Shown: positions 2,333 through 63,647, numbered from the stretch's first letter. The stretch is DNA of 64,000 nucleotides from Companilactobacillus sp. (GCF_022484265.1 NZ_JAKVLR010000001.1:1126783-1190782); one strand, 5' to 3'. The notes: generated by a model not told the origin, from the letters alone. Numbers and translations are program-made.

Positions 2333-2384
2333 AAAAAATGTTCAAAGTTTCCTTTTTAATAGGAAATACTTTGAACATTTTTTT
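2333..2384. terminator. bidirectional terminator (serves the 2450..3214 gene on the minus strand)
   Basis: AAAAAATGTTCAAAGTTTCC...GGAAATACTTTGAACATTTTTTT: a long stem flanked by an A-run and a T-run. Confidence 0.7.
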
Positions 2385-2449
2385 AGCCGTTTCATTTATC
2401 GCTTGTTAAATGTGATTTATCGAAATTACAATTGTGAACTTTAAATAAA

Positions 2450-3214
2450 TTATCTACGACGGTGCTTAACAAATGTTACCCAGTGCAAGATCACTGCGAG
2501 TAGAACAAAGAAGATCACCACAAAACTAACATAGCTTACCCAAAAATTATTCATTGGCATAATAGCTTTGAGTGGTATTTGAATTCCCATTGTGACCAAT
2601 GCCATAACGGCAATCATGAAGAATAGTTGAATATATCTTTTCACGGTTGAATCATCCTTTTCTTGTTTTTTCGAAATCTTATGACCAAACTTTTTGCATA
2701 GCTTGATTTTCTTTTCAGGTATTTCTTTCATACCAAACGTGTTGGGTAATACTAATTCCCCGACTTTGATAACCCCTGCTGCTGACATGACACGATCAAT
2801 GGTCTTGAAGGTCTCGTCAGTAATTCCGGTTAAAAAGTTTTCAGTCGTACTCATGTAGCACGATGAAATACTCATGTAATGCTTATCTTTGAATGGTCCA
2901 GGGATCGTATCGCCATTATCTTTGAAGTAGACGAACTTTGGACGCATGCAGTCAAAGAAATTTTTTAAAAGGCCTGGACATTCGCGCCAATAAGTTGGAG
3001 CAGAAAACACCCAAACATCGCTCTCCATTAGCTTATTTGCTAATTCATCGAGGACTGGATTTTCTTCATGATACTTGTGTGGCGTAATGTTGTAATTTTC
3101 TAAATAAATTGTTTCTGTTTCGACTCCCGAGTCAACATTATCGAGAACATGCTCTAACATTTGGGCATTAAGGCCATGTTCCTTATGTGACGCTAATATA
3201 CCTAATATTTTCAT
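2450..3214 (-). CDS. flavodoxin-like fold NAD(P)H-dependent oxidoreductase with C-terminal membrane anchor
   Basis: N-terminus MKILGILASHK... and the SAPTYW motif fit the flavodoxin_2/FMN-reductase type. The last ~60 aa form two hydrophobic helices. Confidence 0.55.
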   Translation of the reverse strand: MKILGILASHKEHGLNAQMLEHVLDNVDSGVETETIYLENYNITPHKYHEENPVLDELANKLMESDVWVFSAPTYWRECPGLLKNFFDCMRPKFVYFKDNGDTIPGPFKDKHYMSISSCYMSTTENFLTGITDETFKTIDRVMSAAGVIKVGELVLPNTFGMKEIPEKKIKLCKKFGHKISKKQEKDDSTVKRYIQLFFMIAVMALVTMGIQIPLKAIMPMNNFWVSYVSFVVIFFVLLAVILHWVTFVKHRRR

Positions 3215-5079: not shown

Positions 5080-5119
5080 GTTTACATATCCCCTTGGTCC
5101 AATTTTTTAAAAAACCGAT

Positions 5120-6004
5120 TTAGTCATTTTCATCTAACCACTTAGTTAAAATTTGTTCGTACTTGGCATTTTCTTCAACGAATGGCATGTGGCGGCTGTG
5201 CGCAAATAGTTCCCATTTTGAATTAGGAATACCATCATACATAGTTTTTGCAATCAACGGCGTACATAAATCGTTGATGCCACTGGTGATCAAAGTTGGT
5301 ACCTGAATATCTTTCATCTGGTCTAAATAATCATAATCTCTCAAAGTTCCTTCAGGCGAGTATTCATTCGGACCCCAAGCAGTCAGATAACTTTCGGTTC
5401 CAGCTACTTTCTTTCGTCTCAGCGGTTCAGGCGAATTTGCGGTTGGCGTAGCGGCCGCGTGTTGTTCCATATACAAGGCGTTTGCTTTGATGTATGCCGG
5501 ATCATTGTAGTTGCCAGTCTGTTCTGCTTTTTTAATGGCAGCCTTATCCTCTGGCGACATAAAATTATTGATCATTCGATGTTGCTCTTGTGCCCAGAGT
5601 TTCGCTGACGGCAACGTTCCTGACAAGATCAAGCTCTTGATACCTTTGGGGTGGTAATCACACATGTAGATGAAGGCCAACATGCCGCCCCACGACTGCC
5701 CCAACAAGTGGATCTCATCTAAATCAAGATAGTCCCTCAGTTGAATTAGTTCGTTCGCCCACGTCTCTTTTTTCCAAAGCGAAGGGTTAGACGGAACTGC
5801 CGACTTACCACAGCCTAACTGGTCATACATGATGATCTGTCGGCCGTCGACTGCCATATTATCTAAAAGTTCAAAATAATTATGAGTTGAACCTGGTCCA
5901 CCATGCAGTAAAACTAGTGGTTTCTTGTTATTTTCTTGTTTGCCAACGATCCGATAATACGTCTGGTATCCCAGATATGGCATGTAACCTTCTTGGACCT
6001 GCAA
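5120..6004 (-). CDS. proline iminopeptidase-family alpha/beta hydrolase
   Basis: 294 aa. HGGPGSTHNYFE and the GQSWGG nucleophile elbow are typical of lactobacillal PepI/PepR/PepL-type prolyl peptidases. Confidence 0.75.
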   Translation of the reverse strand: MQVQEGYMPYLGYQTYYRIVGKQENNKKPLVLLHGGPGSTHNYFELLDNMAVDGRQIIMYDQLGCGKSAVPSNPSLWKKETWANELIQLRDYLDLDEIHLLGQSWGGMLAFIYMCDYHPKGIKSLILSGTLPSAKLWAQEQHRMINNFMSPEDKAAIKKAEQTGNYNDPAYIKANALYMEQHAAATPTANSPEPLRRKKVAGTESYLTAWGPNEYSPEGTLRDYDYLDQMKDIQVPTLITSGINDLCTPLIAKTMYDGIPNSKWELFAHSRHMPFVEENAKYEQILTKWLDEND

Positions 6005-6242: not shown

Positions 6243-7094
6243 CTAGTTATCATTAAATTTACCCATAATTTCAAGCGTTGGCTGAATGTTGATAAAAGCA
6301 TTCGGATCCATTTTATTGACGGTCTTTTTAACGAAGAATAATTGATACTTGGTCAAAACCATCGTCATCGAACCGATTTGCTCGCCTGAGTATGCTCCGG
6401 TCAAATTGTAGTCGATCGTGATACCACGGTTCAAACTGTCCAACAGCTTCTTAGCTATTTCGTCGATCATGTGCGAATAAACTGTTACAGTGATCTTTTG
6501 TTGTTGGATATACATTCGGTCGATCACAATGTTTGTGATAAAAATCGAGACGATACTGTATAGTGCTAATTCCCAACCGAAGACAAATCCAGCAATCAAG
6601 ACAATGATTCCATTAACGATAAATCCTAATTGTCCAACTGTCCCACCATGATTTTTTTGAATAATCAAGGCGATAATATCAGTTCCACCAGCAGAAAATC
6701 CGTAGCGGAACACTAGTCCGGAACCAATTCCCACTAAGACTCCACCAAAGATGGAAGCTAGCATTGGGTCATGTGTGATTGGATGTAACGGTATGAATAA
6801 AATCAAGATTGAAGCTGAGGCAATCGACAGAAGCGATAGAACGGTAAATCTTTTTCCTAGTTTCAACCAAGCCAATATTATCAGCGGTACGTTAATCAAG
6901 AAATACCAGAAATAGACCTCAGTGTTAAAGTTGGTCGCTTTATAGATCAGGTTGACGACTAACTGTGCCGCACCCATTGTCCCCACGGTATAAATTTTTG
7001 ACGGCTGCAGCAAAAGCTGAACTCCTAATGCCGAAGTTAAACCGTATAAAATTGCGGCTGCAATTTTTTCTGAATAGTCTTTAAATAAGGACAT
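6243..7094 (-). CDS. YitT family membrane protein (DUF161 + DUF2179), paralog 1
   Basis: Start moved to MSLFKDYSEK (ATG 7094) behind a GGGGGTG RBS. 283 aa, collinear with the neighbouring paralog. Confidence 0.7.
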   Translation of the reverse strand: MSLFKDYSEKIAAAILYGLTSALGVQLLLQPSKIYTVGTMGAAQLVVNLIYKATNFNTEVYFWYFLINVPLIILAWLKLGKRFTVLSLLSIASASILILFIPLHPITHDPMLASIFGGVLVGIGSGLVFRYGFSAGGTDIIALIIQKNHGGTVGQLGFIVNGIIVLIAGFVFGWELALYSIVSIFITNIVIDRMYIQQQKITVTVYSHMIDEIAKKLLDSLNRGITIDYNLTGAYSGEQIGSMTMVLTKYQLFFVKKTVNKMDPNAFINIQPTLEIMGKFNDN

Positions 7095-7247
7095 ACCAGC
7101 ACCCCCATAACGAGCGAAATAATAAATATATTGTTGCCTTAAAATCAATGTATCTATTATTGACCGATAATTCAATGATAATTCAGAAAATTTACGGTTA
7201 AAAAAAAGAATCTAATCCTAATTTGGATCAGATCCTATTTTGTCTAA

Positions 7248-8099
7248 TTAATTATCGCTGAATTTACCCATAATACCAATGGTTGGCTGGATATTGATAA
7301 AGGCAGTCGGATCGACTTTTTTCACAGTTTGTTTGACAAAGAATAGTTGATACTTCGTCAAGACCATGGTCATCGAACCAATTTGTTCGCCTGAATAAGC
7401 ACCCGTCAAATTGTGATCCAAGGTAATACCACGGTTTAATGTCTTCAATAGTTCTTTGGAGATGTCATCAATGTGGTGCGAGTAGATAATGACGGTGATC
7501 TTCTGTTGCTGGATGTACATTCGGTCGATCACGATATTAGTTACAAAAATCGAGATGATTGTGTAAAGAGCTAGCTCCCAACCGAAGACGATTCCGGCAA
7601 TAAAAACGATCACGGCATTCACGGTAAATGCCACTTGTCCGACTGTTCCACCACGACTCTTTTGAATAATCAAAGCGATGATATCAGTTCCACCAGTCGA
7701 GAATCCGTAACGGAAACAGATTCCAGAACCAACACCGACCATGGCGCCACCGAAGATCGATGCTAACATTGGATCATCAGTTATTGGATGCAGCGGAATG
7801 AATAAGATAAAAATTGATGCGGCAGCAATTGAAACTAGTGATAAGACAGTAAACTTCTTGCCTAATTTTTTCCAAGATAGAATTATTAATGGCACGTTCA
7901 ACAAGAAGTACCAAAGATAAACTTCAGTATTCAGATGTGAGAATTTGTTGATCAAGTTTACGACCAACTGTGCGGCACCCATGACGCCACTGGTATAAAT
8001 CTTCGCCGGCTGCAATAGTAATTGGATACCGATTGCAGACGTTATCCCGTAAAATATCGCTGCAAAAATTTTTTTCGAATATTCTTTAAATACAGCCAT
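7248..8099 (-). CDS. YitT family membrane protein (DUF161 + DUF2179), paralog 2
   Basis: Start at MAVFKEYSKK (ATG 8099) behind a GGGGGTGG RBS. 283 aa, with most aligned positions identical to paralog 1 by eye. Confidence 0.7.
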   Translation of the reverse strand: MAVFKEYSKKIFAAIFYGITSAIGIQLLLQPAKIYTSGVMGAAQLVVNLINKFSHLNTEVYLWYFLLNVPLIILSWKKLGKKFTVLSLVSIAAASIFILFIPLHPITDDPMLASIFGGAMVGVGSGICFRYGFSTGGTDIIALIIQKSRGGTVGQVAFTVNAVIVFIAGIVFGWELALYTIISIFVTNIVIDRMYIQQQKITVIIYSHHIDDISKELLKTLNRGITLDHNLTGAYSGEQIGSMTMVLTKYQLFFVKQTVKKVDPTAFINIQPTIGIMGKFSDN

Positions 8100-8288
8100 G
8101 GCAGCCACCCCCAAAATTCAATATTAAAAATTATATAACATTACAATATTAATTCATACATAATACTTTCAAATGTCGTTAAATAACCAGTCATCAGATA
8201 TTTCTGAGTAAGCGTAATACATGTATCAGCCATTTTTCAATGTTAAACTGAAATTAATTAATCAATGATTTTATAAGGAGACATAACT

Positions 8289-9643: not shown

Positions 9644-9985
9644 TTAAATTATTATCCCGAGTAAAAATCCGAGTAGTCCAAATAAATATGAAGAACAGAA
9701 ATATAAGAAACACACTATGTAGCGCTTTTGAAACCACAGTTGGCTTAACTCATAGTTAAATGTTCCAAAAGTAGTAAAGCCGCCGCAAATTCCGGTTCCT
9801 AAAAAGACTAATAAGGCCTTGTTTACAATTTTAGCAGTTAACATCCCTAAAACAAATGATCCGACCACATTTATTATCAATGTCATCCAAGGAAAATCAA
9901 TTGGAATTTTTCGCGACAATCCAGTCAATTCATTTCTGGCAGTCGCCCCGATCGTTGCCCCTAAGGCAACCAGCACAATATTCAT
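9644..9985 (-). CDS. crcB: fluoride channel subunit CrcB/Fluc
   Basis: 113 aa with four TM segments and a GGFTTFGTF motif. Confidence 0.8.
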   Translation of the reverse strand: MNIVLVALGATIGATARNELTGLSRKIPIDFPWMTLIINVVGSFVLGMLTAKIVNKALLVFLGTGICGGFTTFGTFNYELSQLWFQKRYIVCFLYFCSSYLFGLLGFLLGIII

Positions 9986-11806: not shown

Positions 11807-12208
11807 TTAATTTTTTTCCAATTCCTTGTCAGCAAAATATACTGCCAAATAATTGCCGAATAGTGCTAACAAAAATCCACCTACCATTGTAATAATTAAA
11901 TACAGTCCAAAAGCTAAATAGTCGCTGTTCAAAAATAGTTTCACTGCATCAGCCGACATCGTCGAAAATGTCGTATATGAGCCTAACAATCCAGTCGTCA
12001 AAGACAAGACTGTCCCAGCAGATAAGTGGAAACGATCATGCAAGTAATGGATCAATAACGGTAAAACAAACGCGCCAGTCAAATTGACAAAGATCGTGCC
12101 CCAAGGAAAGCTTGAGTAATTTATAAAAAGCAGACTGATCAAATATCTCAAGATTCCGCCAATTGATGCGCCGATAAAAATAATGCCGAATGTTCTCAAT
12201 TTTTTCAT
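11807..12208 (-). CDS. crcB: fluoride channel subunit CrcB/Fluc (second copy)
   Basis: 133 aa with four TM segments and a GSYTTFSTM motif. Confidence 0.8.
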   Translation of the reverse strand: MKKLRTFGIIFIGASIGGILRYLISLLFINYSSFPWGTIFVNLTGAFVLPLLIHYLHDRFHLSAGTVLSLTTGLLGSYTTFSTMSADAVKLFLNSDYLAFGLYLIITMVGGFLLALFGNYLAVYFADKELEKN

Positions 12209-16333: not shown

Positions 16334-17194
16334 ATGGCAAAAAACATTAATTACGTAATTCAGAGTTACTACCATAATTTAAAAGGTACTTATAAAGAAA
16401 TAGCTGATTATATTTTGCACACCGAATCGTTTGATTCCGCTTTGACAATCAGCTCGTTGGCTGAAGAAGTGAATGTATCGATCTCTTCGATCTCACGATT
16501 TGCTAAAATTTTAGGTTTTTCCAGCTTCCAAGATTTTAAACTCAGTTTGATCACGTCTAGTTCAGACTCATCAGATTCGTTGTTCCAAGATATCACTGCC
16601 AACGATTCTTACATGACGATGACTCAAAAGATTTTTAATGGAAACATCTCGACCCTCAAAGCTACTGAAAAAGTGTTGACTGAGCGACAGTTAGAACAAG
16701 CTTCTACCATCATTGAAGAATCTGACTGCGTCGCCTTTTTTGGACTAGGAGCTTCGGGAATCGTTGCCCAAGACGGATTCCACAAATTCCTCCGTTCTGA
16801 TAAAAAGCCTTATTTCACCACTGACTTCCACATGCAATTGATGATGGCCACCAAACTGACTGAAAAAGATTGTGCCATTGTAATCTCCCATAGTGGCGAG
16901 AACCAGGACACCTTGCAGATCGTGTCAGAACTAAGAAAAAACCACGTTAAGATCATCGGAATCACCAGTTACGGCAATTCCAGTCTGACCCACTTAGTCG
17001 ACGTCTGCCTGCTGTCGATCTCAGATGAAACGCAGTACCAAAACGAAGCGTTGCACGCCATCATTGCTCAGATCAGTTTAGTCGATACACTATTCATGAT
17101 CACAGCCGTCCATGACGAACAACAAACTAGTACCGTCTTTAAAGAAATCAGAAGCACCATCAATCTCACTAGAAAAACCGCTGAAAAAAAATAG
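16334..17194 (+). CDS. MurR/RpiR family transcriptional regulator (HTH + SIS), divergent from the gluconate operon
   Basis: 286 aa with an N-terminal HTH_6 (ISSLAEEVNVSISSISRFAK) and a SIS domain (FFGLGASG). Confidence 0.75.
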   Translation: MAKNINYVIQSYYHNLKGTYKEIADYILHTESFDSALTISSLAEEVNVSISSISRFAKILGFSSFQDFKLSLITSSSDSSDSLFQDITANDSYMTMTQKIFNGNISTLKATEKVLTERQLEQASTIIEESDCVAFFGLGASGIVAQDGFHKFLRSDKKPYFTTDFHMQLMMATKLTEKDCAIVISHSGENQDTLQIVSELRKNHVKIIGITSYGNSSLTHLVDVCLLSISDETQYQNEALHAIIAQISLVDTLFMITAVHDEQQTSTVFKEIRSTINLTRKTAEKK

Positions 17195-17228
17195 AGGATG
17201 TCTGCATATGCAGATATCCTCTTATTTT
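17193..17228 (+). terminator. rho-independent terminator after RpiR-family gene
   Basis: AGAGGATGTCTGCA-TAT-GCAGATATCCTCT followed by a T-rich tail. Confidence 0.75.
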
Positions 17229-17238
17229 GATTTGACGG

Positions 17239-17460
17239 ACAAACTCTTCCGCTTAACTACTGAATGAAATGATTGCACAGTACGCAATCCTTCCATTCTT
17301 ACGTTAATGCTCGGAAATTACCCGCTTTTGACACTCTCTAATCTGAAACGAGCTTATAAAAACAGACTTTTCCGCTTGCCACGGATATGGCTGATTGCAT
17401 AAACCGCAATAAGTCATATCCTGAGCAATGCTCGAAGTCTAACCGTTTTTAACGCTCTCT
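17239..17460. repeat. two tandem ~100-nt hairpin repeat units (U1 17239-17339, U2 17362-17460)
   Basis: The units share flanks (TTCCGCTT... and ...AATGCTCGRA...CTCTCT). The central stems differ but stay complementary: GAATGAAATGATTGC/GCAATCCTTCCATTC in U1 and GGATATGGCTGATTGC/GCAATAAGTCATATCC in U2. Confidence 0.75.
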
Positions 17461-18105
17461 TTATTTTATAAATCTGTTCCACCAATGTTCTTTTTTCTCG
17501 TCTGTTACTTGCATGTTGACGAGCGTATTTAGGTTGGCATCCTTGCCGGCTTCTTTTTTACTCTTATCATCGTCTTTGTTAGCTTCATCAGCCTTGGCTT
17601 TTTTCTCTTTAGCCTGACGAACTGTCTTTAGATATTCTTGATACTTCTTATCTTTTTCAAGTTTCTCATCAGTTTCTTCAGCCCCTGTTTCTTCCTGAAG
17701 TTTGATGATCTTCTTGCTCAAGTTTTGAATAACGCGGTCTTGTTGCTCAATGTTAGCACGCAACTCTTTGATAGTATTTTCCAAATTAGCTACCTGCGCG
17801 TTATGAGTACCATTGCTAGCATCCGTTGTGCCGTCATTGTTAGCTTCAGACACTGGATAAATTTGCTTAGCTGCTGATTCCAAAGTCATTTTGGGACCAT
17901 GTCCAAGTTCAACCATTTTATTGAAATCATCAATGTTCTTTTGAGTATACAAACGGTTATTCTGCTTGTTACGTTCGAAGTATCCACCGTTATTAGTTGA
18001 ATGTTCGACAATTAAAGAGTATTTCCGTAGCGTGGCAACGCTGATCCCCAAAATTTCGGCTGCCTGAGCCGGTGTTAAAAATTTAGTATTCTTCGTATTT
18101 GTCAA
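17461..18105 (-). CDS. MerR/excisionase-like HTH protein with coiled-coil and Lys/Glu-rich tail
   Basis: LTPAQAAEILGISVATLRKY is an HTH. The central region is heptad-like and the C-terminus is charged. TTG start behind GGGGGA. Confidence 0.45.
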   Translation of the reverse strand: MTNTKNTKFLTPAQAAEILGISVATLRKYSLIVEHSTNNGGYFERNKQNNRLYTQKNIDDFNKMVELGHGPKMTLESAAKQIYPVSEANNDGTTDASNGTHNAQVANLENTIKELRANIEQQDRVIQNLSKKIIKLQEETGAEETDEKLEKDKKYQEYLKTVRQAKEKKAKADEANKDDDKSKKEAGKDANLNTLVNMQVTDEKKEHWWNRFIK

Positions 18106-20876: not shown

Positions 20877-20906
20877 AGGAAGACCGTTGGGTCTTCCTTT
20901 TTTTGT
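20877..20906 (+). terminator. rho-independent terminator after CNNM gene
   Basis: AGGAAGACC-gttg-GGTCTTCCT followed by TTTTTTT. Confidence 0.8.
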
Positions 20907-20915
20907 TTTTTTTGT

Positions 20916-21150
20916 AGGCGGTATGAGGGCCGACTCCGGACGAAAATTGCTTTCGGGGATCCGTGACATGCTGGGCACAACTTTAAGCCAAGTGTCACTG
21001 CGTGACGGCTTGTCTTAAAGCTTGGCCTCATCCTAAGCAATAAATTGCTAAGGATGATTTCAGCATTTGGTCCCCACGCGATTTTCGTCCTCCGTCTAAA
21101 CAGCGTTACTTCAAAATCTCTGTGTATATTGAAATATGGTATGCGAACTC
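20916..21150 (-). repeat. structured modular repeat, copy A (inverted orientation, diverged interior)
   Basis: The reverse complement reads linker (GTTCGCATACCATATTTCAATATACACAGAGATTTTGA...) + GGAGGACGAAAATCGCGTGGGG ... CCCCGAAAGCAATTTTCGTCCGGAG + GGCCCTCATACC. The outer stem and linker match copies B, C and D. Confidence 0.7.
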
Positions 21151-22808: not shown

Positions 22809-23160
22809 GGTGACTCCGAAGGAGGAACAAATCGGCATCAGTGACTCCGAAAGGAGGAGCGAAATTGAACCGACCACCCCAGATTTTTCACCAACAAAAC
22901 TGGCATACCCTCTTTCACCAAACAAAAGAGAATTTGACTTGACTCAACCCAGGCGGAGGACGGAAAGCGATGCCCGGCTCAGTAGAGACATTTTCGTTAG
23001 CCGGCGACAACGCCAGCTTACGAAAAGAGGCAGATTTGAGATTTTTTCGGGCTTTGAAAAAAGCTCAAAGTGTCTCCTCTACGTTCCAGACGAAAGGCAA
23101 TCACTTTTCGTCCGGAGCCGGCAGTGAACCACCAATCCAAGAATCCACCACAAACAAAAA
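22809..23160 (+). repeat. structured modular repeat, copy B (degenerate half-sites + linker 22900-22951 + module 22952-23122 + tail)
   Basis: GGCGGAGGACGGAAAGCGATGCC...GGCAATCACTTTTCGTCCGGAGCC is the outer stem. Internal hairpins lie at 22991-23026 and 23035-23069. Two 30-nt direct half-site repeats start at 22810 and 22841. Confidence 0.8.
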
Positions 23161-23209
23161 CAAAATAAAAAAGGACTCGCCCAGCGAGTCCTGTCCATCA
23201 ATTCTCTAA

Positions 23210-29693: not shown

Positions 29694-29940
29694 CCGCCAT
29701 CATACCCTCATTCAATAATATATAGAGATTTTGACTCGAACAAGATTAGGCGGAGGACGGAAATCGATGCCCGGCTCAGTAGGGACATTTTCGTTAGCCG
29801 GCGACGACGCCAGCTTACGAAAAGAGGCAGCTTTGAGATGTTTTCGGTTTGTGAAAATAGCTCAAAGTGTCTCCCCTACGTTCCAGACGAAAGGCAATCG
29901 ATTTCCGTCCGGAGCCGGCCCGCATACCACAAACAAATCA
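29694..29940 (+). repeat. structured modular repeat, copy C (linker 29694-29748 + module 29749-29918 + partial linker)
   Basis: Near-identical to copy B, with paired substitutions in the stems. It ends with GGCCCGCATACCAC. Confidence 0.85.
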
Positions 29941-29988
29941 GTCAACATCAAAAAAGACGACTTCCCAATCATCCAAGAAATCGTCTTT

Positions 29989-30201
29989 TTACTTATCCAA
30001 ATGCAGCTTCCGAGCCTTCTTATGATGCTCAGCCAACAAATCAGTAATCTTGAAATACAAATAAATCAAGGCCACCGCAATAGTAGCCGCACCCGAGATA
30101 AAAGCTTCACGCATATTTCTACTAAAAATTAAGATCATAGTCGCAATCAACAAAACCACAATCGCTGCGACAAATGATACATATCTATGTTGATACCTCA
30201 T
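29989..30201 (-). CDS. small two-TM membrane protein
   Basis: 70 aa behind a GGGGAGG RBS, with two hydrophobic helices and a basic tail. Confidence 0.45.
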   Translation of the reverse strand: MRYQHRYVSFVAAIVVLLIATMILIFSRNMREAFISGAATIAVALIYLYFKITDLLAEHHKKARKLHLDK

Positions 30202-51035: not shown

Positions 51036-52193
51036 TTAAGCTTGGTATCTTGAAACACCATCAAGATAAGTTTCTGACAATGTCATATCGTCATCAAGCA
51101 CGATAAAGTCAGCATCGCGACCTTCGGCGATCATTCCACACTTATCGAGAACTTTTGAACTCTTGGCAGCAGTGTAACTGGCCATTTCAATTGCTTCTTC
51201 ATCAGTAGCAATGTTCCAGTCAACGACGTTTTTAATAGCGTCTTTAAGCAATAGGATCGAACCAGCAAGGTTGTGTGTTTCATCCTTCAATCTAGCAGTA
51301 CCATCAGCAACGACAACAGGTAATTCACCAAGAACGTAGTCACCATCAGGCATCAAACCGGCACGCATACAGTCAGTGATCAAAGCAACGTGTTCAGCAG
51401 TTTTCTTTTCGATAACAACACGAGCAGCGTATGGATTAACGTGGTGGCCATCACAGATAAGTTCGTCATCAACTAAGTGCATTGAAAGAGCAGCACCAAC
51501 CATACCAGGTTGACGGTGGTTTAAACCACTCATTCCGTTGTAAGTATGTGTAAATCCAGAAGCACCAGCTTCAACACAAGCCTTAGCTTGTTCAAAAGTA
51601 GCGTCAGAGTGACCTAAAGTAACCGCAACATCATCAGATGCAACAGCTTGTGTAAATTCAACTGAACCTTTTCTTTCAGGAGCAATTGAGATTTTCTTGA
51701 TCATGCCGTGAGCAGCTTCTTGCCAGTCAACAAATTCACTAGCATCAGGGTCACGCATATATTTAGGGTTTTGAGCACCCTTGTGTTTTTCAGTATAGAA
51801 AGGACCTTCAAAATGAATACCTTGGATCTTGGCACCAGTAGCCTTTTGGTAGTTATCACCAATCGTGGCACAAATATGTCTAAGTTGATCATGAGATGCA
51901 GTCAAAGTAGTTGGCAACCAAGAAGTAACACCAGCTTTTAAAAGACCTTCTGACATTTCGTTTAATTTCTCGAAATCGTCATCCATAACATCATGACCAA
52001 CGAGACCATGAATATGAGTATCAACAAGACCAGGAGCAATAAACTTGTCAGAATAATCCACGATCTTACCTTCAGGCTTGTTATCTTCAGTGAAGAAACT
52101 ACCAAATTTGTTGTCATCAGTAATTTCAAGATAACCACCGTTTTCAGTCGTGTTAGGTAAAAAGAACTTTTTAGCATGAATGTAATATGTCAT
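51036..52193 (-). CDS. nagA: N-acetylglucosamine-6-phosphate deacetylase
   Basis: GLVDTHIHG...HFEGP...LGHSDAT...THTYNGM are NagA motifs. Start at ATG 52193 behind GGAGGA; the 30-codon upstream extension in the ORF track is unsupported. Confidence 0.85.
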   Translation of the reverse strand: MTYYIHAKKFFLPNTTENGGYLEITDDNKFGSFFTEDNKPEGKIVDYSDKFIAPGLVDTHIHGLVGHDVMDDDFEKLNEMSEGLLKAGVTSWLPTTLTASHDQLRHICATIGDNYQKATGAKIQGIHFEGPFYTEKHKGAQNPKYMRDPDASEFVDWQEAAHGMIKKISIAPERKGSVEFTQAVASDDVAVTLGHSDATFEQAKACVEAGASGFTHTYNGMSGLNHRQPGMVGAALSMHLVDDELICDGHHVNPYAARVVIEKKTAEHVALITDCMRAGLMPDGDYVLGELPVVVADGTARLKDETHNLAGSILLLKDAIKNVVDWNIATDEEAIEMASYTAAKSSKVLDKCGMIAEGRDADFIVLDDDMTLSETYLDGVSRYQA

Positions 52194-52220
52194 TTTCAAT
52201 CCTCCAATAAATATGAATAT

Positions 52221-52250
52221 AGTATAGCAAAAATAATTGGTATATACCAA
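52221..52250 (-). promoter_or_regulatory. nagA promoter (TTGGTA-18-TATACT) with perfect 14-bp palindrome TTGGTATATACCAA (52237-52250), dre/NagR-like operator
   Basis: The palindrome overlaps the -35. It resembles the GntR/HutC-type TGGTCTAGACCA dre core known for NagR/DasR regulons. Confidence 0.5.
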
Positions 52251-52426
52251 GAAAAAGGACAAAAAATCGACACAAATTAACATTCAATAAAAAATAAAAT
52301 TCAATCCCCGACAAGCACGAAGTGCTGGGAGGACAACCTTACCAGAAGAATATAATTCCCAAGTGATCACAAATACAAAAAAACAAATTTTAAAAATTAT
52401 ATTTTCCGATAAAAAAGCAGGAGATA

Positions 52427-53010
52427 GCAAGCAACCCATATTCCAACAAATATAGAGGCTTTTGAATGGTTAAATCTGAGTTCATGCGAAAGATGCAAGC
52501 ATACCTTATTTCAACAAACATAAAGGTTCTTGGTTCGTTTTAAATTAAAGTTTAAACAAAGGCTGCAAGCATACCTTCTTTCAACAAACATAGAGGTATT
52601 TGACTTAAACCAGACTAGCCGTACGGTTGGGATTGCGTTGGCCCAAGTAGAGAAGAAAGGAACGTACGTCGCCCTTGGCGCATGCGCCACTGTCTAAAAT
52701 GTTGGCTACGCCAACGAACAACCAAGGATGACGAAGCCAACAAAGCAATCCCAATAATACGGCGGCCCGCATACCTTCTTTCAACAAATATAGAGGTATT
52801 TGACTTAAACCAGACCAGCCGGAGGACGGAAATCGATGCCCCGGCCCAATGGTGGCGTTTATGTTAGTCGACGATGACGGCGACTTACATAAAAAGGCAG
52901 CTTTGAGATTTTTTCGGTCTTTGAAAAAAGCTCAAAGTGTCTTCACCATGTTCCGGCCGACAAGGGCAATTGATTTCCGTCCGGAGGAGGCCCGCATACC
53001 ACCAACAAAA
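52427..53010 (+). repeat. array of the structured modular repeat: linkers L1-L4 (52427, 52495, 52565, 52764), modules D1 (52618-52766) and D2 (52818-52989), terminal partial linker
   Basis: GCAAGCATACCTTCTTTCAACAAACATAGAGGTATTTGACTTAAACCAGAC-type linker is repeated four times. D2 matches copies B and C. D1 has a different sequence but the same stem layout. Confidence 0.85.
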
Positions 53011-53037
53011 AAAGGCTAAGCCACAAATGGCTTAACC
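53007..53037 (-). terminator. rho-independent terminator after ddl
   Basis: The minus strand reads GGTTAAGCC-atttgt-GGCTTAGCC followed by TTTTTTT. Confidence 0.6.
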
Positions 53038-53042
53038 CCTGA

Positions 53043-54101
53043 TTACTTAGCTAATTCTTCGTAATATCTCAACTTACTCTTAATGATCTTATCGCAAAGC
53101 TCAGGATAACTAATCCCAACAGCTTCCGCCTCACGAGGCATCAATGAACGAGGAGTCATACCCGGAAGAGTATTAGCCTCCATCACGAAAATATCGCGAT
53201 CACGGACCAAGAAGTCCACACGACCATAACTAGTCATACTCAAAGCTTCAAAAGTCTGCAATGCAACTTCTTGCATTTCCAAATGAATATCTTCATCGAG
53301 ATTTTCAGGAGGAGTTGTGAAGTGAGTAGTAGTATTCTCAGTAAACTTGTGTTGGAAGTCGTACCAACCAGTATCAACAGTAACTTCGATAGCTGGAAGA
53401 ACTTGACCATCAACCACAGCCACAGAGAATTCACGACCCTTGATATATTCTTCGATCAAGGCTTCTTTATCGAATCTCAATGCATCAGCAACCATTGCTT
53501 GCAATTCAGATTCATCGTTGATGATATGAGTACCAACACTTGATCCACCATTAGAAGGCTTAACAACCATTGGGAAACGGAATGGAATTTCTTCCTTTGT
53601 GATCTTGCTAGTCTTAGTAGCAACGAACTTGGCAGTTTTGATGTTGTTTTGAACAAAAACTTCTTTAGAGAATTTCTTATCCATAGTAACTGCAGATGCT
53701 AAAGTACCGCTACCTGTGTAGCGAATATCAAAGACATCAAGGACGGCTTGCATCTTACCGTTTTCTCCGTCTTCACCGTGAAGACCTAAGTAAACCATGT
53801 CTGCATGTTGGCAAACTTTCAAGACGTTCTTGCCAAGCAATCCACGAGTTCCGTCTGTACGTAAAGCATTGATCTTTTCGTCAGTCAAAACTTCATCGTC
53901 AATGATCAATTTTGATTCATCTTCGGCTTCAGTCTTAAATAATGAATCGATTTGATCATCTTCAACATCGATACCTAAAAATGAATCAATATTAGCTACT
54001 TCGTAGCCTTTGCTTCTTAAGGCGTTAGAAATCTTAACACCGGATGATAATGAAACGTTTCTTTCGGTACTTCTACCACCTGAGAGGACAACAATTTTCA
54101 T
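53043..54101 (-). CDS. ddl: D-alanine--D-alanine (or D-alanine--D-lactate) ligase
   Basis: 352 aa with the ATP-grasp Ddl signature (MKIVVLSGGRSTERNVSLSSG...EANTLPGMT). The omega-loop reads WYDFQHKF. Confidence 0.85.
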   Translation of the reverse strand: MKIVVLSGGRSTERNVSLSSGVKISNALRSKGYEVANIDSFLGIDVEDDQIDSLFKTEAEDESKLIIDDEVLTDEKINALRTDGTRGLLGKNVLKVCQHADMVYLGLHGEDGENGKMQAVLDVFDIRYTGSGTLASAVTMDKKFSKEVFVQNNIKTAKFVATKTSKITKEEIPFRFPMVVKPSNGGSSVGTHIINDESELQAMVADALRFDKEALIEEYIKGREFSVAVVDGQVLPAIEVTVDTGWYDFQHKFTENTTTHFTTPPENLDEDIHLEMQEVALQTFEALSMTSYGRVDFLVRDRDIFVMEANTLPGMTPRSLMPREAEAVGISYPELCDKIIKSKLRYYEELAK

Positions 54102-59711: not shown

Positions 59712-60010
59712 AATTAAACATTTCGCCCAAAACCGATGAGGTGGAGATAACAATTATTGTGCACGCACAGAGAGTTGCCGTAGCTGAGAATGCAATCGAA
59801 CGCAGATAATTAAATGGACCGCCGAGGGTTCTCCTGAATTTAGTACGGAGAAACGTACAGACATACGTCAGTTGTCAGAGGAGTGATAGCTCCTTGTTAA
59901 GCGTGATATGTTGACGACTATTTGTCATAGTCTCTCAACTGTCGAATTAAGGTGGCACCGCGGATAATCCGTCCTTAACTTCTAAATGAAGTTTTGGGCG
60001 GATTTTTTTT
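59712..60010 (+). promoter_or_regulatory. T-box riboswitch leader, Trp (UGG) specifier, upstream of trpE
   Basis: Stem I elements are GATGAG, AGAGA and GCTGAGAA. The specifier context is AAA-TGG-A (TGG 59815-59817). The T-box sequence is AATTAAGGTGGCACCGCGG (59946-59964). The terminator is AATCCGTCC...GGGCGGATTTTTTTT (59966-60010). Confidence 0.85.
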
Positions 60011-60053: not shown

Positions 60054-60086
60054 ATTACGCAAATTAAAAATTTAAAGGTGAGCAAT

Positions 60087-61550
60087 ATGAAAATTAACGA
60101 CTTAAAAAAATATACTAACGACTACCCTGCTGTCCCTGTGACAATCAGCTTCAAGCTAGAGGACTTCGACCCAATCGACTTGACGCAAAATCTCAATCAA
60201 AGCCAAGGCCCCTGCTTTTTATTCACCGGCCAACCTAAGCCTGATGAAGATGGCTATAGTTTTATCGGATTAAATCCTGATGAGACAATCGTCTATAAAG
60301 ACGGAACCTTAACGGTTGAAAAAGCTGGTAAAATCACGCAGACAAAGACCGCACTCAAACCTTATTTGGAATCGATCTTGACCAAGTATCGGACACCAAA
60401 ATTCGACGATTTACCACCATTTTTGGGTGGCTTGGCAGGATATCTAAGTTACGATTACGCCAGGTTTGCCAATCCCACTTTGCCACAAAAATTAGCTGAC
60501 CCATATGGTCTAAATGATGCTGACTTCTTGTTGATCCACAAAGTCATTGCCTACAATCATAAAACCCAAACTGTGACTTTATCGAAAATTGTTTCTTCAA
60601 AAGCCTTAGAAACTGATTACGATGACGCAATCTCAGAATTGAATGAACTCAAAGAAATCGTAATTGCCAATAATCATCCGAGCCAATTGCCTGGTTTTAA
60701 AATGTTATCCAAACCTGAATTGCACTTTGACCGTGAAGAATTCGCCGAAAAAGTTGCCGATACGAAAAAACACATCGTCGATGGCGACATATTCCAATTG
60801 ATCCTTTCAAATCCTCAACACGGAACTATGAGTGGCAGTCTCTATGCAGTCACGAAAAATCTCTTCAAAGATAGTCCTGCACCGTATCAATTTTTTTACA
60901 AGCATAACGACTTTGAGACCGTTGGCTCATCTCCAGAGACCTTGATTTCTAAACATGATGACAAATTATTCACCTATCCGCTAGCTGGAACGAGACGTCG
61001 TGGCAAAACGCCTGAAGAAGACGCTCAATTAGCATATGAACTAACTCACAGTACTAAAGAATTATCTGAACACAACATGCTGATCGACTTAGGTCGAAAT
61101 GACTTGGGACGTGTCAGCAAGTTTGGGACTGTCAAAGTCACAAGAACTCGCAAACTGCTTCACTTCAGCAATGTCATGCACATGGGTTCAACCGTCGAAA
61201 GTATCGCAGATCCTCAAGAGTCCGCCGTTGATATCGTCGAGTCTCTTATGCCTGCCGGCACTTTATCTGGTGCCCCAAAGATCAGTGCAATGAAGATCAT
61301 CTCAAATATTGAAGGCCAAAAACGTGGCATCTATGGTGGATGCTTAGGCTACTTCGATTTTTCTGGAGACTTAGATTTCTGTATCGGAATTCGTTTAGCT
61401 TATCGTCAAAATGAAAACTTAGTCGTCCACTCAGGTGCCGGCATCGTCGCCGACAGTATTGCCAAAAATGAATATCAAGAATTTAACAATAAGGCAAGAA
61501 ATGTCGTAGATGCTCTCAACAAGACTAATCAAACGGAGGTTCTATCATGA
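60087..61550 (+). CDS. trpE: anthranilate synthase component I
   Basis: Chorismate-binding domain motifs are present (LSNPQ..., SPETL, GAGIVADS). ATG 60087 follows AAAGGTGAG. Confidence 0.9.
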   Translation: MKINDLKKYTNDYPAVPVTISFKLEDFDPIDLTQNLNQSQGPCFLFTGQPKPDEDGYSFIGLNPDETIVYKDGTLTVEKAGKITQTKTALKPYLESILTKYRTPKFDDLPPFLGGLAGYLSYDYARFANPTLPQKLADPYGLNDADFLLIHKVIAYNHKTQTVTLSKIVSSKALETDYDDAISELNELKEIVIANNHPSQLPGFKMLSKPELHFDREEFAEKVADTKKHIVDGDIFQLILSNPQHGTMSGSLYAVTKNLFKDSPAPYQFFYKHNDFETVGSSPETLISKHDDKLFTYPLAGTRRRGKTPEEDAQLAYELTHSTKELSEHNMLIDLGRNDLGRVSKFGTVKVTRTRKLLHFSNVMHMGSTVESIADPQESAVDIVESLMPAGTLSGAPKISAMKIISNIEGQKRGIYGGCLGYFDFSGDLDFCIGIRLAYRQNENLVVHSGAGIVADSIAKNEYQEFNNKARNVVDALNKTNQTEVLS

Positions 61551-62189: not shown

Positions 62190-62523
62190 AACAAATAAAT
62201 TCGTCCATAAACCAATGAGATGGAAGTCAAGATTATCGTGCACGCCCAGAGAGTTGCCGGTGCTGAGAATGGCAATCGAACGCAGATAGTTAAATGGACC
62301 ATCGAGGGTCTCTCCGAAAGGTTACGAGTACGGGAGAACGTTAGACATACGTAAGTTGTCGGGAGGGTGTTAGCCCTTCGCTAAGAGTAATGGACGATAG
62401 AATATTTGAGGTAGTATTTTTGCTACACTCTCTTTCTATCAGTCTATTGAAATTAAGGTGGCACCGCGGAATATGATCCGTCCTTAAACGTTAAGTAAAA
62501 CGTTTATGGACGGATTTTTTTTA
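62190..62523 (+). promoter_or_regulatory. second T-box riboswitch leader, Trp (UGG) specifier, between trpG and trpD
   Basis: It has the same element order as leader 1. The specifier is AAA-TGG-A (TGG 62295-62297). The T-box sequence is AAATTAAGGTGGCACCGCGG (62450-62469). The terminator is ATCCGTCC...GGACGGATTTTTTTT (62474-62523). Confidence 0.85.
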
Positions 62524-62579: not shown

Positions 62580-62627
62580 TCAATTTCAACACTACTAACT
62601 AGTTAAATTAATTTGGAGGATTCAATT

Positions 62628-63647
62628 ATGATTGAAAATGCAATTAAAAAATTAACCGAAGGTCAAGACTTAACATTTGACGAAACAAACCAAGTGATCG
62701 ACGAAATTATGACAGGCAACACAACCTCAGTTCAAATCTCAAGTTTCTTAACAGCTTTGAGTGTAAAAAAAGAAACAGTCGATGAAATCGCTGGAGCTGC
62801 TGATGCAATGAGAGCACACGCTTTAGATTTCAAAGCTGACGAACCAGTTCTTGAAATTGTTGGTACTGGTGGCGACCATTCCAACTCATTCAACATTTCA
62901 ACTACTTCAGCATTAGTCGTTGCAGCTAGTGGCATCCCTGTCGCAAAGCATGGTAATCGTGCAGCTTCATCAAAAAGCGGTGCAGCTGACGTGCTTGAAT
63001 CATTAGGAGTTCAAATCAACTTAGATCCAAAGCGTAGCGAAGAGATCTTAAACCAAATTGGTATTTGCTTCTTATTCGCCCAAGAATATCACAAGGCTAT
63101 GAAATACGTTGCACCAGTTAGAAAAGAATTAGGTATCCGAACATTGTTCAATGTCTTAGGACCTCTTGCTAATCCAGCTCATGCATCCAGCCAAGTACTG
63201 GGTGTCTATGATGAAAGCTTAGTTGAACCAATGGCTAAAGTACTCGATCAAATTGGCGTTAAAGATGCCGCAGTTATTCATGGACAAGATGGATTTGATG
63301 AAGCTTCAATCTCTGCTCCTACCATAGTTATGGAAGTTCATAACGGAGAATTCACTAAATATGAAATAACTCCTGAACAATTCGGTTTAAAACGTGCCAA
63401 TAAATCAGACATCATCGGTGGAACTCCTGATGAGAATGCTGAGATCACTATGAACATCCTTAAAGGAAATAAGGGACCTCAACGTGATGTGATCTTGGTC
63501 AATTCCGCGCTAGCAATCCACACTGCTAAACCAGAAATCAGTTTAGACGATGCAATTAAGCTAGCTGCTAAAACAATTGACGACGGAAAAGCTTTAGAAG
63601 AATTAAACCAATTCATCAAATTGACTGAAGCAGGTGTTGCAGCTTGA
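62628..63647 (+). CDS. trpD: anthranilate phosphoribosyltransferase
   Basis: VGTGGD...HGNRAASSKSGAADVLE. ATG 62628 follows GGAGGA. Confidence 0.9.
   Translation: MIENAIKKLTEGQDLTFDETNQVIDEIMTGNTTSVQISSFLTALSVKKETVDEIAGAADAMRAHALDFKADEPVLEIVGTGGDHSNSFNISTTSALVVAASGIPVAKHGNRAASSKSGAADVLESLGVQINLDPKRSEEILNQIGICFLFAQEYHKAMKYVAPVRKELGIRTLFNVLGPLANPAHASSQVLGVYDESLVEPMAKVLDQIGVKDAAVIHGQDGFDEASISAPTIVMEVHNGEFTKYEITPEQFGLKRANKSDIIGGTPDENAEITMNILKGNKGPQRDVILVNSALAIHTAKPEISLDDAIKLAAKTIDDGKALEELNQFIKLTEAGVAA

Follow-up and report, generated by a model that had tools for sequence, protein, structure and literature searches.

The window analyzed here, a stretch of 64,000 nucleotides, is a piece of the 2.67-Mb chromosome of a Companilactobacillus sp. 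(GCA_022483845.1; JGI 3300061692). Within it, ddl and nagA lie on the minus strand and flank, as the upstream and downstream gene, respectively, a repeat array situated in a gap of 849 nt (Table 1). In plus-strand order, this gap comprises a nagA promoter-like site, ~170 nt of AT-rich DNA, the array itself (52427-53010), and the ddl terminator; the position between terminator and promoter given in a first-pass annotation of this DNA thus agrees with our scans, which located both signals. The T-run of the ddl terminator adjoins the 3' tail of the array. At the other end, the nagA promoter-like site overlaps an operator-like palindrome, TTGGTATATACCAA, and in relatives, a related motif, GGTCTATACC, is found at the equivalent position before nagA. 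The array probably has little effect on ddl and nagA, except that it spaces the terminator from the promoter by ~700 nt.

Table 1. Features of the ddl-nagA locus and further elements in the 64,000-nucleotide window
Feature	Position	Strand	Evidence
E1, same linker type, divergent module with the same fold	20905..21150	-	Covariance-model match, 93.4 bits at 20929-21099 (-)
E2, D2-type, alternative tail GGCAGTGAACC	22899..23150	+	Covariance-model match, 187 bits
E3, D2-type	29696..29942	+	Covariance-model match, 200 bits
nagA, N-acetylglucosamine-6-phosphate deacetylase	51036..52193	-	Translation; exact match to named proteins
nagA promoter-like site, TTGGTA-18-TATACT	52221..52250	-	Promoter scan
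Linker L1, module-less, most diverged copy	52427..52494	+	Repeat search; nhmmer, E=2e-10
Linker L2, module-less	52495..52564	+	Repeat search; nhmmer, E=1.5e-11
Linker L3	52565..52620	+	Repeat search; nhmmer
Module D1 (E4), own outer stem and ~95-nt core	52618..52766	+	Inverted repeat I1; minimum-energy fold
Linker L4, 92% identical to L3	52764..52820	+	Repeat search; nhmmer, E=1e-15
Module D2 (E5), Y-shaped hairpin of the D2-type family	52815..52991	+	Covariance-model match, 191.9 bits, E=1e-47
Truncated linker/3' tail GGAGGCCCGCATACCACCAACAAAA	52986..53010	+	Direct-repeat families D3 and D7
ddl intrinsic terminator	53011..53040	-	Terminator scan: 13 pairs, then TTTTGTTGGT; second terminator script agrees
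ddl, D-alanine--D-alanine ligase	53043..54101	-	Translation; exact match to named Companilactobacillus sp. proteins; Pfam Dala_Dala_lig domains

The array spans ~600 bases and consists of two empty and two occupied repeat copies. The four linkers first annotated as starting at 52427, 52495, 52565, and 52764, together with a truncated fifth at 52991, were all recovered by a repeat search, in which a 35-nt linker core recurred at 52431, 52499, 52569, and 52769 with 74-80% identity to the reference copy and a 61-nt version recurred at 52491, 52561, and 52761 with 67-92% identity; GGCNGCNNGCATACC is present at 52561, 52761, and 52986. A 35-mer and a 37-mer each occurred twice at ≤3 mismatches, compared with 0.00 occurrences expected from 100 shuffles. 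The spacing of the linker copies is uneven (68, 70, and 200 nt), and Tandem Repeats Finder did not report the array, as the similarity of L1 and L2 to L3 and L4 amounts to only 67-80%. L1 and L2 are old, diverged linker copies. L1 and L2, and likewise L2 and L3, had been described as nearly adjacent, as if their modules were lost; the run L1-L2-L3 is better read as linker units that have no module.

A linker, or pad, has a length of ~55-100 nt and is made up of a leader, GCATACC..TTTGA..TTTAGNC, and a tail, which reads GNC-GGC-CCGCATACC.. or GNC-GGC-AGTGAACC.. The ends of a whole unit, from leader to tail, are direct repeats with GCATACC at both ends. In many copies, the leader reaches ~40 nt further upstream (AGTGAnCCGAC...CAAACAAAAGTC). 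This extension is similar to the alternative tail GGCAGTGAACC..., so that each element appears to comprise a little over one unit of a (module-linker)n series. The 3' tail at the end of the array aligns with the tails of elements E1, E3, E6-E9, and E12. It had been stated that every site ends in GGCCCGCATACC, but E2 ends in the alternative tail instead.

The two occupied copies carry modules D1 and D2, with lengths of ~150 nt for D1 and ~170 nt for modules of the D2 type. Folding energies are -98 kcal/mol (z=-7.3) for the D2 unit and -66 kcal/mol (z=-3.1) for the D1 unit, and the repeat search recovered each outer stem as an inverted repeat (I1 for D1 and I2 for D2). The inner stem and the two small hairpins described for D1 are present in its minimum-energy fold. 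The suggestion that D1 and D2 have the same layout holds for the outer part only, where a short outer stem is followed by a 3x3 internal loop and then by a long stem; the core differs, and D1 was not detected by a covariance model of D2-type modules. Conversely, D2 is not the unrelated sequence that it was taken for, but belongs to one structural superfamily with the modules named A, B, and C in the first-pass annotation. The core of D1 recurs with ~87-91% identity at two further places (L123, 18879-18965; L122, 9572-9657).

Nine D2-type copies yielded a consensus structure in which a 3-bp outer stem, a symmetric 3x3 loop (GGA/GGA), and a ~20-bp stem lead, via a 5-nt bulge (GTTCC) and a 6-bp stem, to a three-way junction with hairpins A and B. 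In a MAFFT alignment of these nine close copies alone, 18 of 64 pairs already covary. Using a covariance model built on the nine copies, divergent module types scored 52-108 bits on one strand only, with the reverse strand reaching at most 27 bits. When 15 modules were aligned to the model, 96.1% of the cells were paired, compared with 74% after shuffling and with only about 40% in controls in which the 3' partner was shifted by 1-3 columns, and 55 of the 64 pairs changed on both sides (matched in 0 of 500 shuffles), counts that are somewhat inflated by fitting the alignment to the model structure but that exceed the controls by a very large margin. Single-sequence folds of E1, F2, F3, and Cg, which were made independently, gave the same Y shape with the same spacing.

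Several unpaired or mismatched features are kept while the stems around them change, i.e., the 3' GGA of the internal loop and an A-G mismatch seven pairs into hairpin B, and the same is true for the GTTAG...CTTAC base of hairpin A. The hairpin-B loop GGTCTTT is common to D2, Cg, F1, and F3 despite the change in the stem. G-T cells number 42 versus 9 A-C cells. The plus strand is the more stable one in 12 of 14 modules with RNA parameters and in 13 of 14 with DNA parameters; because nine of the 14 modules are close relatives, the independent support for this strand preference is smaller than the counts suggest, and among the divergent types, three of five have it by RNA energies. Altogether, the D2, E1, and F types share one Y-shaped fold, which compensatory changes preserve and which has its greater stability on one strand.

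The array is not the only site of the linker, which is found elsewhere in the genome and in a sister species. Within the window, as the first-pass annotation had it, further modules with this linker ahead of them lie at 20.9 kb (minus strand), 22.9 kb, and 29.7 kb, always in the order leader-module-tail. In total, the 64-kb window holds seven linker copies, for which a linker HMM found exactly seven leaders, and five full elements, compared with a chance expectation of 0. At least 10 further copies were found in ~100 kb of additional DNA from the source genome (L117, L119, L122, and three in L123) and from a sister species (L121 and L124); these copies were reached via spurious ORFs called inside D2-type modules. 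Several of them are accompanied by a second, divergent element in head-to-head orientation (F1, F2, F3, and R122), and an IS3-family element in L119 truncates one copy (F1). C. ginsenosidimutans has two distant members. Taken together, ~250 kb of Companilactobacillus DNA, of which ~145 kb is from the source genome, contains at least 16 copies of elements of ~215-250 nt. Leaving out the copies used to fetch each locus, the density is ~1 element per 13-15 kb, from which we estimate, by extrapolation from a biased sample, ~180-200 copies per 2.7-Mb genome. This estimate fits a survey of conserved MITEs (PMC11602168) that counts C. heilongjiangensis, in which 211 of 241 elements are different, among the genomes of greatest known MITE diversity. 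Whole elements are pairwise 72-93% identical, and because even the best pairs do not exceed 93%, there is no sign of very recent bursts.

Scans of public DNA collections returned nothing but chance matches. The leader pattern GCATACCNTNTTTCAMCAAA gave 99 single chance matches from unrelated taxa in a contig collection from which the source species is evidently absent, and none of these matches was accompanied by the rest of the element. A scan of metagenome contigs with CGTCCGGAGNNGGCCCNCATACC gave two chance matches in high-GC DNA, a scan of viral contigs for the conserved hairpin B gave none, and blastn of the array against plasmids and phages gave no match. When the spurious ORFs were used for a profile search against 1.84 billion representative proteins, no more than two small ORFs were gained, and one of them was located in the sister species.

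Linkers and modules reassort. The modules of E5 and E9 (L122, 9967-10143) are 95.9% identical, whereas their leaders are only 59% identical and their tails differ, and the switch in identity falls at the module ends. By contrast, the leaders of E4 and E5 are 92% identical, yet their modules, D1 and D2, are unrelated. Leader and tail types are paired whatever module lies between them: E2, E10, and E11 have the type ...AGGC/GCC-GGC-AGTGAAC; E1, E6, E7, E9, and E12 the type ...TTTAGAC/GTC-GGC-CCGCATACC; and E4 and E5 the type ...AGCC/GGC-CCGCATACC. The three bases on each side of a module form its outermost 3-bp stem and are at the same time the halves of a GNC-GNC palindrome of the pad, the middle base of which covaries (pair 5/230). 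Reassortment extends into the modules: the ~95-nt D1 core, ~90% identical throughout, occurs in three outer contexts, i.e., with its own stem (E4), with a D2-type 5' arm (E12), and with an F-type 5' arm and a D2/E1-type 3' arm (R122), and R122 is unable to close an outer stem. Accordingly, the earlier description of a mosaic organization rather than a simple MITE stands insofar as the elements are multi-copy, reassort linkers and modules, and are BIME- or NIME-like, but the repeat-spacer or cassette array offered alongside does not: the apparent spacers are repeated elsewhere, there are no ORF cassettes, and attC-type core motifs are not visible in the aligned copies.

The elements have a preferred genomic position. 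In 12 of 16 elements, an intrinsic terminator on the opposite strand lies just past the tail, with its T-tail ending 9-37 nt from the 3' boundary of the module; these elements are therefore arranged tail-to-tail with a converging gene and directly after its terminator. All nine D2-type copies of the source genome are on the C-rich strand, a bias from which we draw no conclusion because it is inseparable from the tail-to-tail arrangement with co-oriented genes. In C. ginsenosidimutans and C. versmoldensis, ddl and nagA are 100 nt and 179 nt apart, respectively, with no element in between; in a third relative, the distance is 311 nt, and an unrelated ~150-nt palindrome occupies the equivalent place. 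With gaps of only 100-311 nt in related species, the array is a lineage-specific gain. Short-read contigs of the same or a sister species stop at ddl or inside elements (L102, L113, and L116), as expected from the effect of repeats on assemblies. Every assembly with an identical ddl or ATPase protein has an equal arrangement; among the strains sampled, no site was found in both an empty and a filled version, so mobility is inferred rather than directly seen. In the aligned copies, neither the modules nor the whole units have a target-site duplication on their flanks.

Based on these observations, the explanation that we favor, and consider probable with some reserve, is that a mosaic, structure-constrained, and non-autonomous repeat family of the MITE/REPIN/BIME/NIME kind, specific to this lineage, has piled up locally to form the array. 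We infer that an enzyme recognizing the folded single strand copies modules, and probably whole pad-plus-module units, between sites. This enzyme might be of the HUH/Y1 type or another hairpin-binding protein and would be encoded elsewhere, and the target of insertion would be the DNA that immediately follows the T-run of an intrinsic terminator. In the ddl-nagA gap, the pad was probably multiplied in tandem (L1-L4), such that two of the four pads now have different modules, D1 and D2; either modules entered two pads or they were lost from the other two, and long palindromes are known to be deletion-prone. A more specific, two-tier version of mobility is rather unlikely in our judgment. According to it, a ~170-nt Y-shaped module, as single-stranded DNA or RNA, would enter the GNC-GNC centre of a ~100-nt landing-pad repeat just past terminator T-runs, driven by a candidate hairpin-recognizing enzyme (HUH/Y1, recombinase, or reverse transcriptase), which would recognize the module by its GGA/GGA loop, A-G mismatch, and GGTCTTT loop. 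A gene of the RAYT or IS200/IS605 type, which the first-pass annotation proposed to look for, was not found in the window or the fetched loci: none of the window proteins is a transposase, recombinase, or reverse transcriptase; RAYT, IS200-type, Y1_Tnp, TnpB, reverse transcriptase, and integrase are all missing from the Pfam lists for window and fetched loci; and the sole transposable element in the extra loci is the IS3-family element that cuts F1.

The main rival to a mobile repeat family is that the modules are the genes or cis-acting parts of a new ~170-nt structured RNA family on the plus strand, with the linker providing processing or expression signals and with spread and mosaicism being secondary. 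We regard this as possible, if unlikely. Much of the structural evidence fits a transcribed RNA equally well, including the very strong covariation, the conserved GGA/GGA 3x3 loop, A-G mismatch, GTTCC bulge, and GGTCTTT loop, the excess of what would be G-U pairs over A-C mismatches, the greater stability of the plus strand, and the strand-specific model scores. However, G-T pairs and tandem G-A mismatches are stable in single-stranded DNA too, and the strand preference holds with DNA parameters. Moreover, signals for expression are scarce: a promoter scan of 52150-53100 found none in or before the leaders, other aligned leaders, inspected by eye, have no sigma-70-like promoter, and the conserved TTTGAC in the leaders is, also by eye, not followed by a -10 box on either strand. 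Plus-strand terminators are not consistently present in the 3' flanks, in which, by inspection, only E3 has a suitable T-run. Rfam gave no match for the whole window at gathering thresholds, and at E≤10 the region 52200-53100 gave only a 16.5-bit microRNA match that we attribute to chance. In addition, 12 of 16 elements have their plus strand antisense to the gene that converges on them, and the chimeric copies R122 and E12 are unable to form the outer stem. Alternatively, the copies could be inert relics of old duplications, in which intrastrand template switching produced the compensatory changes and homologous recombination the mosaicism, without a dedicated enzyme or any function. The age of the copies, with whole elements 72-93% identical, the degenerate and chimeric copies, the module-less L1 and L2, and the failure to see a mobilizing gene in the window and fetched loci are in line with such relics. 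Nevertheless, we find them improbable, because mismatches, bulge, and loop sequence are kept where the stems have diverged almost completely, whereas arm-to-arm correction would be expected to remove them. Between E5 and E9, identity drops from 96% to 59% at the module ends, in flanks that look too diverged for homologous recombination, and 12 of 16 elements are placed and oriented consistently with respect to terminators.

Taken literally, the alternation of conserved with variable units, with folded units that keep their structure while varying in sequence, could also suggest an integron-like cassette array or a CRISPR-like repeat-spacer array. We consider this very improbable because the variable units recur elsewhere, the linkers are only 67-92% alike and irregularly spaced, no conserved ORFs lie between the units, where the only ORFs are frame-broken, and neither cas nor intI was found among the window proteins scanned. 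It is even harder to credit that the D2-type module encodes a small protein, annotated as hypothetical proteins of 56-121 aa. A GGAGGA-N9-ATG start context does lie within the outer stem, and gene callers predicted a same-frame ORF in several copies. However, the frame is disrupted in one sub-lineage by a 1-nt indel directly behind the ATG and by a 2-nt indel close to the 3' arm, the ORFs extend past the element into unrelated flanks, the differences between E2 and E3 mostly change the amino acid, the divergent types E1 and Cg have no ORF by inspection, and only ~10 such ORFs were found among the 1.84 billion representative proteins.

We found no published description of the family; only a bulk MITE count hints at it. 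Among known systems, it resembles the REP/BIME and REPIN repeats of proteobacteria, for which the RAYT protein is a Y1/HUH transposase: like these, the elements are extragenic and multi-copy, have a hairpin kept by compensatory change, cluster as mosaics together with linker motifs, are often located behind terminators or between converging genes, and persist for a long time per lineage. However, REPs and REPINs are simple palindromes of 20-40 nt or doublets of ~100 nt, whereas the modules described here are ~150-170 nt long and, in the D2 type, branched; REPs carry a GTAG head, which was not apparent on reading the aligned copies; and the host is a Firmicute in which no RAYT gene was seen in the DNA sampled. 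In the NIMEs of Neisseria (RS repeats flanked by dRS3), a short repeat likewise alternates with diverse intergenic modules of 50-150 bp that reassort, but the NIME linker, an inverted repeat of 20 bp, serves a phage integrase, whereas the linker described here is a directional unit of 55-100 nt with long-hairpin modules, and the two systems are unrelated in sequence. BOX elements, known from Streptococcus pneumoniae (boxA-boxB(n)-boxC), are also modular, structured intergenic repeats of the Lactobacillales with a variable number of internal modules; by description, they are set apart by a fixed set of three module sequences, compared with many types with one fold here.

MITEs such as Correia, RUP, and bcr1 are similarly small, non-coding, present in many copies, equipped with inverted-repeat arms, and assembly-breaking, and Companilactobacillus has been flagged as exceptionally MITE-diverse (PMC11602168). 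In contrast to MITEs, we found no target-site duplication, and the ends of the whole unit are direct rather than inverted repeats, with the long inverted repeats being the module arms; ordinary MITEs also lack an internal fold that is conserved across families, which the elements described here have. The comparison with PATEs derived from IS200/IS605, which have small subterminal hairpins at both ends, neither a terminal inverted repeat nor a target-site duplication, strand-specific insertion 3' of a fixed short target, and a Y1 transposase, points both ways: the elements described here have no target-site duplication, a strand-biased fold, and CATACC at both ends; however, they have one large branched hairpin instead of two small ones, a CATACC that stays the same next to so many terminators can hardly have been a target present before insertion, and no Y1 gene was seen. 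Group IIC introns and other terminator-targeting elements are alike in their orientation-specific placement right after the terminator T-run, yet the elements are only ~250 nt long and no reverse transcriptase is nearby. A group II intron, considered because GTGCG follows the T-run in some copies, was rejected based on size and the lack of Rfam matches in the window at gathering thresholds and in the array to E=10, from which it follows that no group II intron family was detected. As analogies only, attC sites and the Y-shaped telomeres of parvoviruses are folded single-stranded DNAs with conserved structure and purine-rich bubbles or extrahelical bases, which are recognized by tyrosine or HUH enzymes. 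However, attC sites have the core motifs RYYYAAC/GTTRRRY, which by eye are not visible at the aligned stem bases, and neither ORF cassettes nor, among the window proteins scanned, an integrase was seen; in the case of parvoviruses, there is no viral context and nothing was found in phage and viral collections. CRISPR arrays have near-identical, regularly spaced repeats with unique spacers, unlike the diverged and irregular repeats with recurring modules at ddl-nagA.

The family is new to Rfam, and its kind, i.e., extragenic structured mosaic repeats, is already known; what sets it apart is the branched fold across families, the separation of pad and module, and the placement adjacent to terminators. 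In proteobacteria, structured extragenic repeats of the REP/REPIN/BIME kind have been studied extensively, in Firmicutes far less. The elements described here provide an unusually clean case, with one fold across almost fully diverged sequences, reassorting linkers and modules, and a terminator-adjacent placement in fixed orientation. In practical terms, they break short-read assemblies and yield spurious hypothetical proteins in annotation, and they may account for the genus topping a published ranking of MITE diversity (PMC11602168). Should there be a partner enzyme, lactic acid bacteria would offer, in this family, a tractable system in which to study DNA or RNA mobility directed by hairpins.

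The public annotation (JGI gene calls) places three hypothetical proteins within the hairpin elements of the window (see the table); these ORFs are artefacts that arise from the GC-rich hairpins, and we used such spurious ORFs as handles to locate other copies of the repeat. Shortly upstream of the full element E2, two copies of GTGACTCCGAA(A)GGAGGA are present (window 22810-22858). They are similar to the 3' arm of the module of the E1 type (GACTCCGGACGAAAAT), and this similarity suggests that they may be leftovers of an older element at the E2 site. The AT-rich DNA adjoining elements at two loci (window 52306-52322; L117, from the same genome, ~9855-9870) contains a small recurring hairpin, either as GCAC-GAA-GTGC or in complementary form. 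In L119, another locus of this genome, the divergent element F1 is cut short by an IS3-family element inserted in it, and a stray piece of a 3' tail from the linker/module family is present on the opposite side of the insertion (7821-7854).

We also observed a second family of structured intergenic repeats, unrelated to the linker/module family, in the window (17240-17445) and in L122 of the same genome (8163-8438). It consists of tandem units of ~100-120 nt each (sample segment, TTCCGCTTGCCACGGATATGGCTGATTGC...GCAATAAGTCATATCC), and the copies at the two loci share 73-84% identity. A terminator-like palindrome (17187-17228) directly precedes the repeats of the window, a placement that again matches that of the first family.

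Features in and around the repeat loci
Feature	Location	Strand	Remarks
Hypothetical protein, 56 aa	window 52849-53019	+	JGI gene call
Hypothetical protein, 79 aa	window 22970-23209	+	JGI gene call
Hypothetical protein, 121 aa	window 29767-30132	+	JGI gene call
IS3-family element	L119 7923-9502		HTH_Tnp_1/HTH_28 and rve ORFs
T-box leader	window 59727-59979	+	Rfam T-box match
Anthranilate synthase component I gene	window 60078-61550		one T-box leader of the pair in front
T-box leader	window 62206-62488	+	Rfam T-box match
Anthranilate phosphoribosyltransferase-like gene	window 62613-63647		other T-box leader of the pair in front
YitT/DUF2179 paralogue	window 6243-7175	-	adjacent to next
YitT/DUF2179 paralogue	window 7248-8114	-	adjacent to previous
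CrcB gene	window 9644-9985	-	
CrcB gene	window 11807-12208	-	

The two T-box leaders resemble each other in sequence, with 83-92% agreement across portions of the leader. Both score 89-90 bits, slightly below the Rfam gathering score of 93, and were for this reason missed by the default Rfam search of the window. The YitT/DUF2179 paralogues share 77% identity across 300 nt; the two CrcB genes are separated by genes for an MFS transporter and an HxlR regulator, and Rfam reported no fluoride riboswitch in the window. In the sister species (L124), clustered tandem ORFs of 35-40 aa on a single strand (2366-3089 and 16465-17591), near a gene with a Pfam RsaX20 match, could represent arrays of small toxin-like peptides.

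At the ddl-nagA gap itself, a palindrome, TTGGTATATACCAA (window 52237-52250), overlaps the promoter-like site of nagA, and relatives have a related motif, GGTCTATACC, at the same position (L103 ~5100-5112; L105 ~5195-5210). Palindrome and motif look like a candidate operator for a GntR/NagR-type repressor. In another Companilactobacillus sp. (L109 4100-4330), this gap holds a different GC-rich palindrome of ~150 nt, which is similar to neither of the modules of the ddl-nagA array, D1 and D2. The ddl-nagA site seems to draw hairpin elements in several species.
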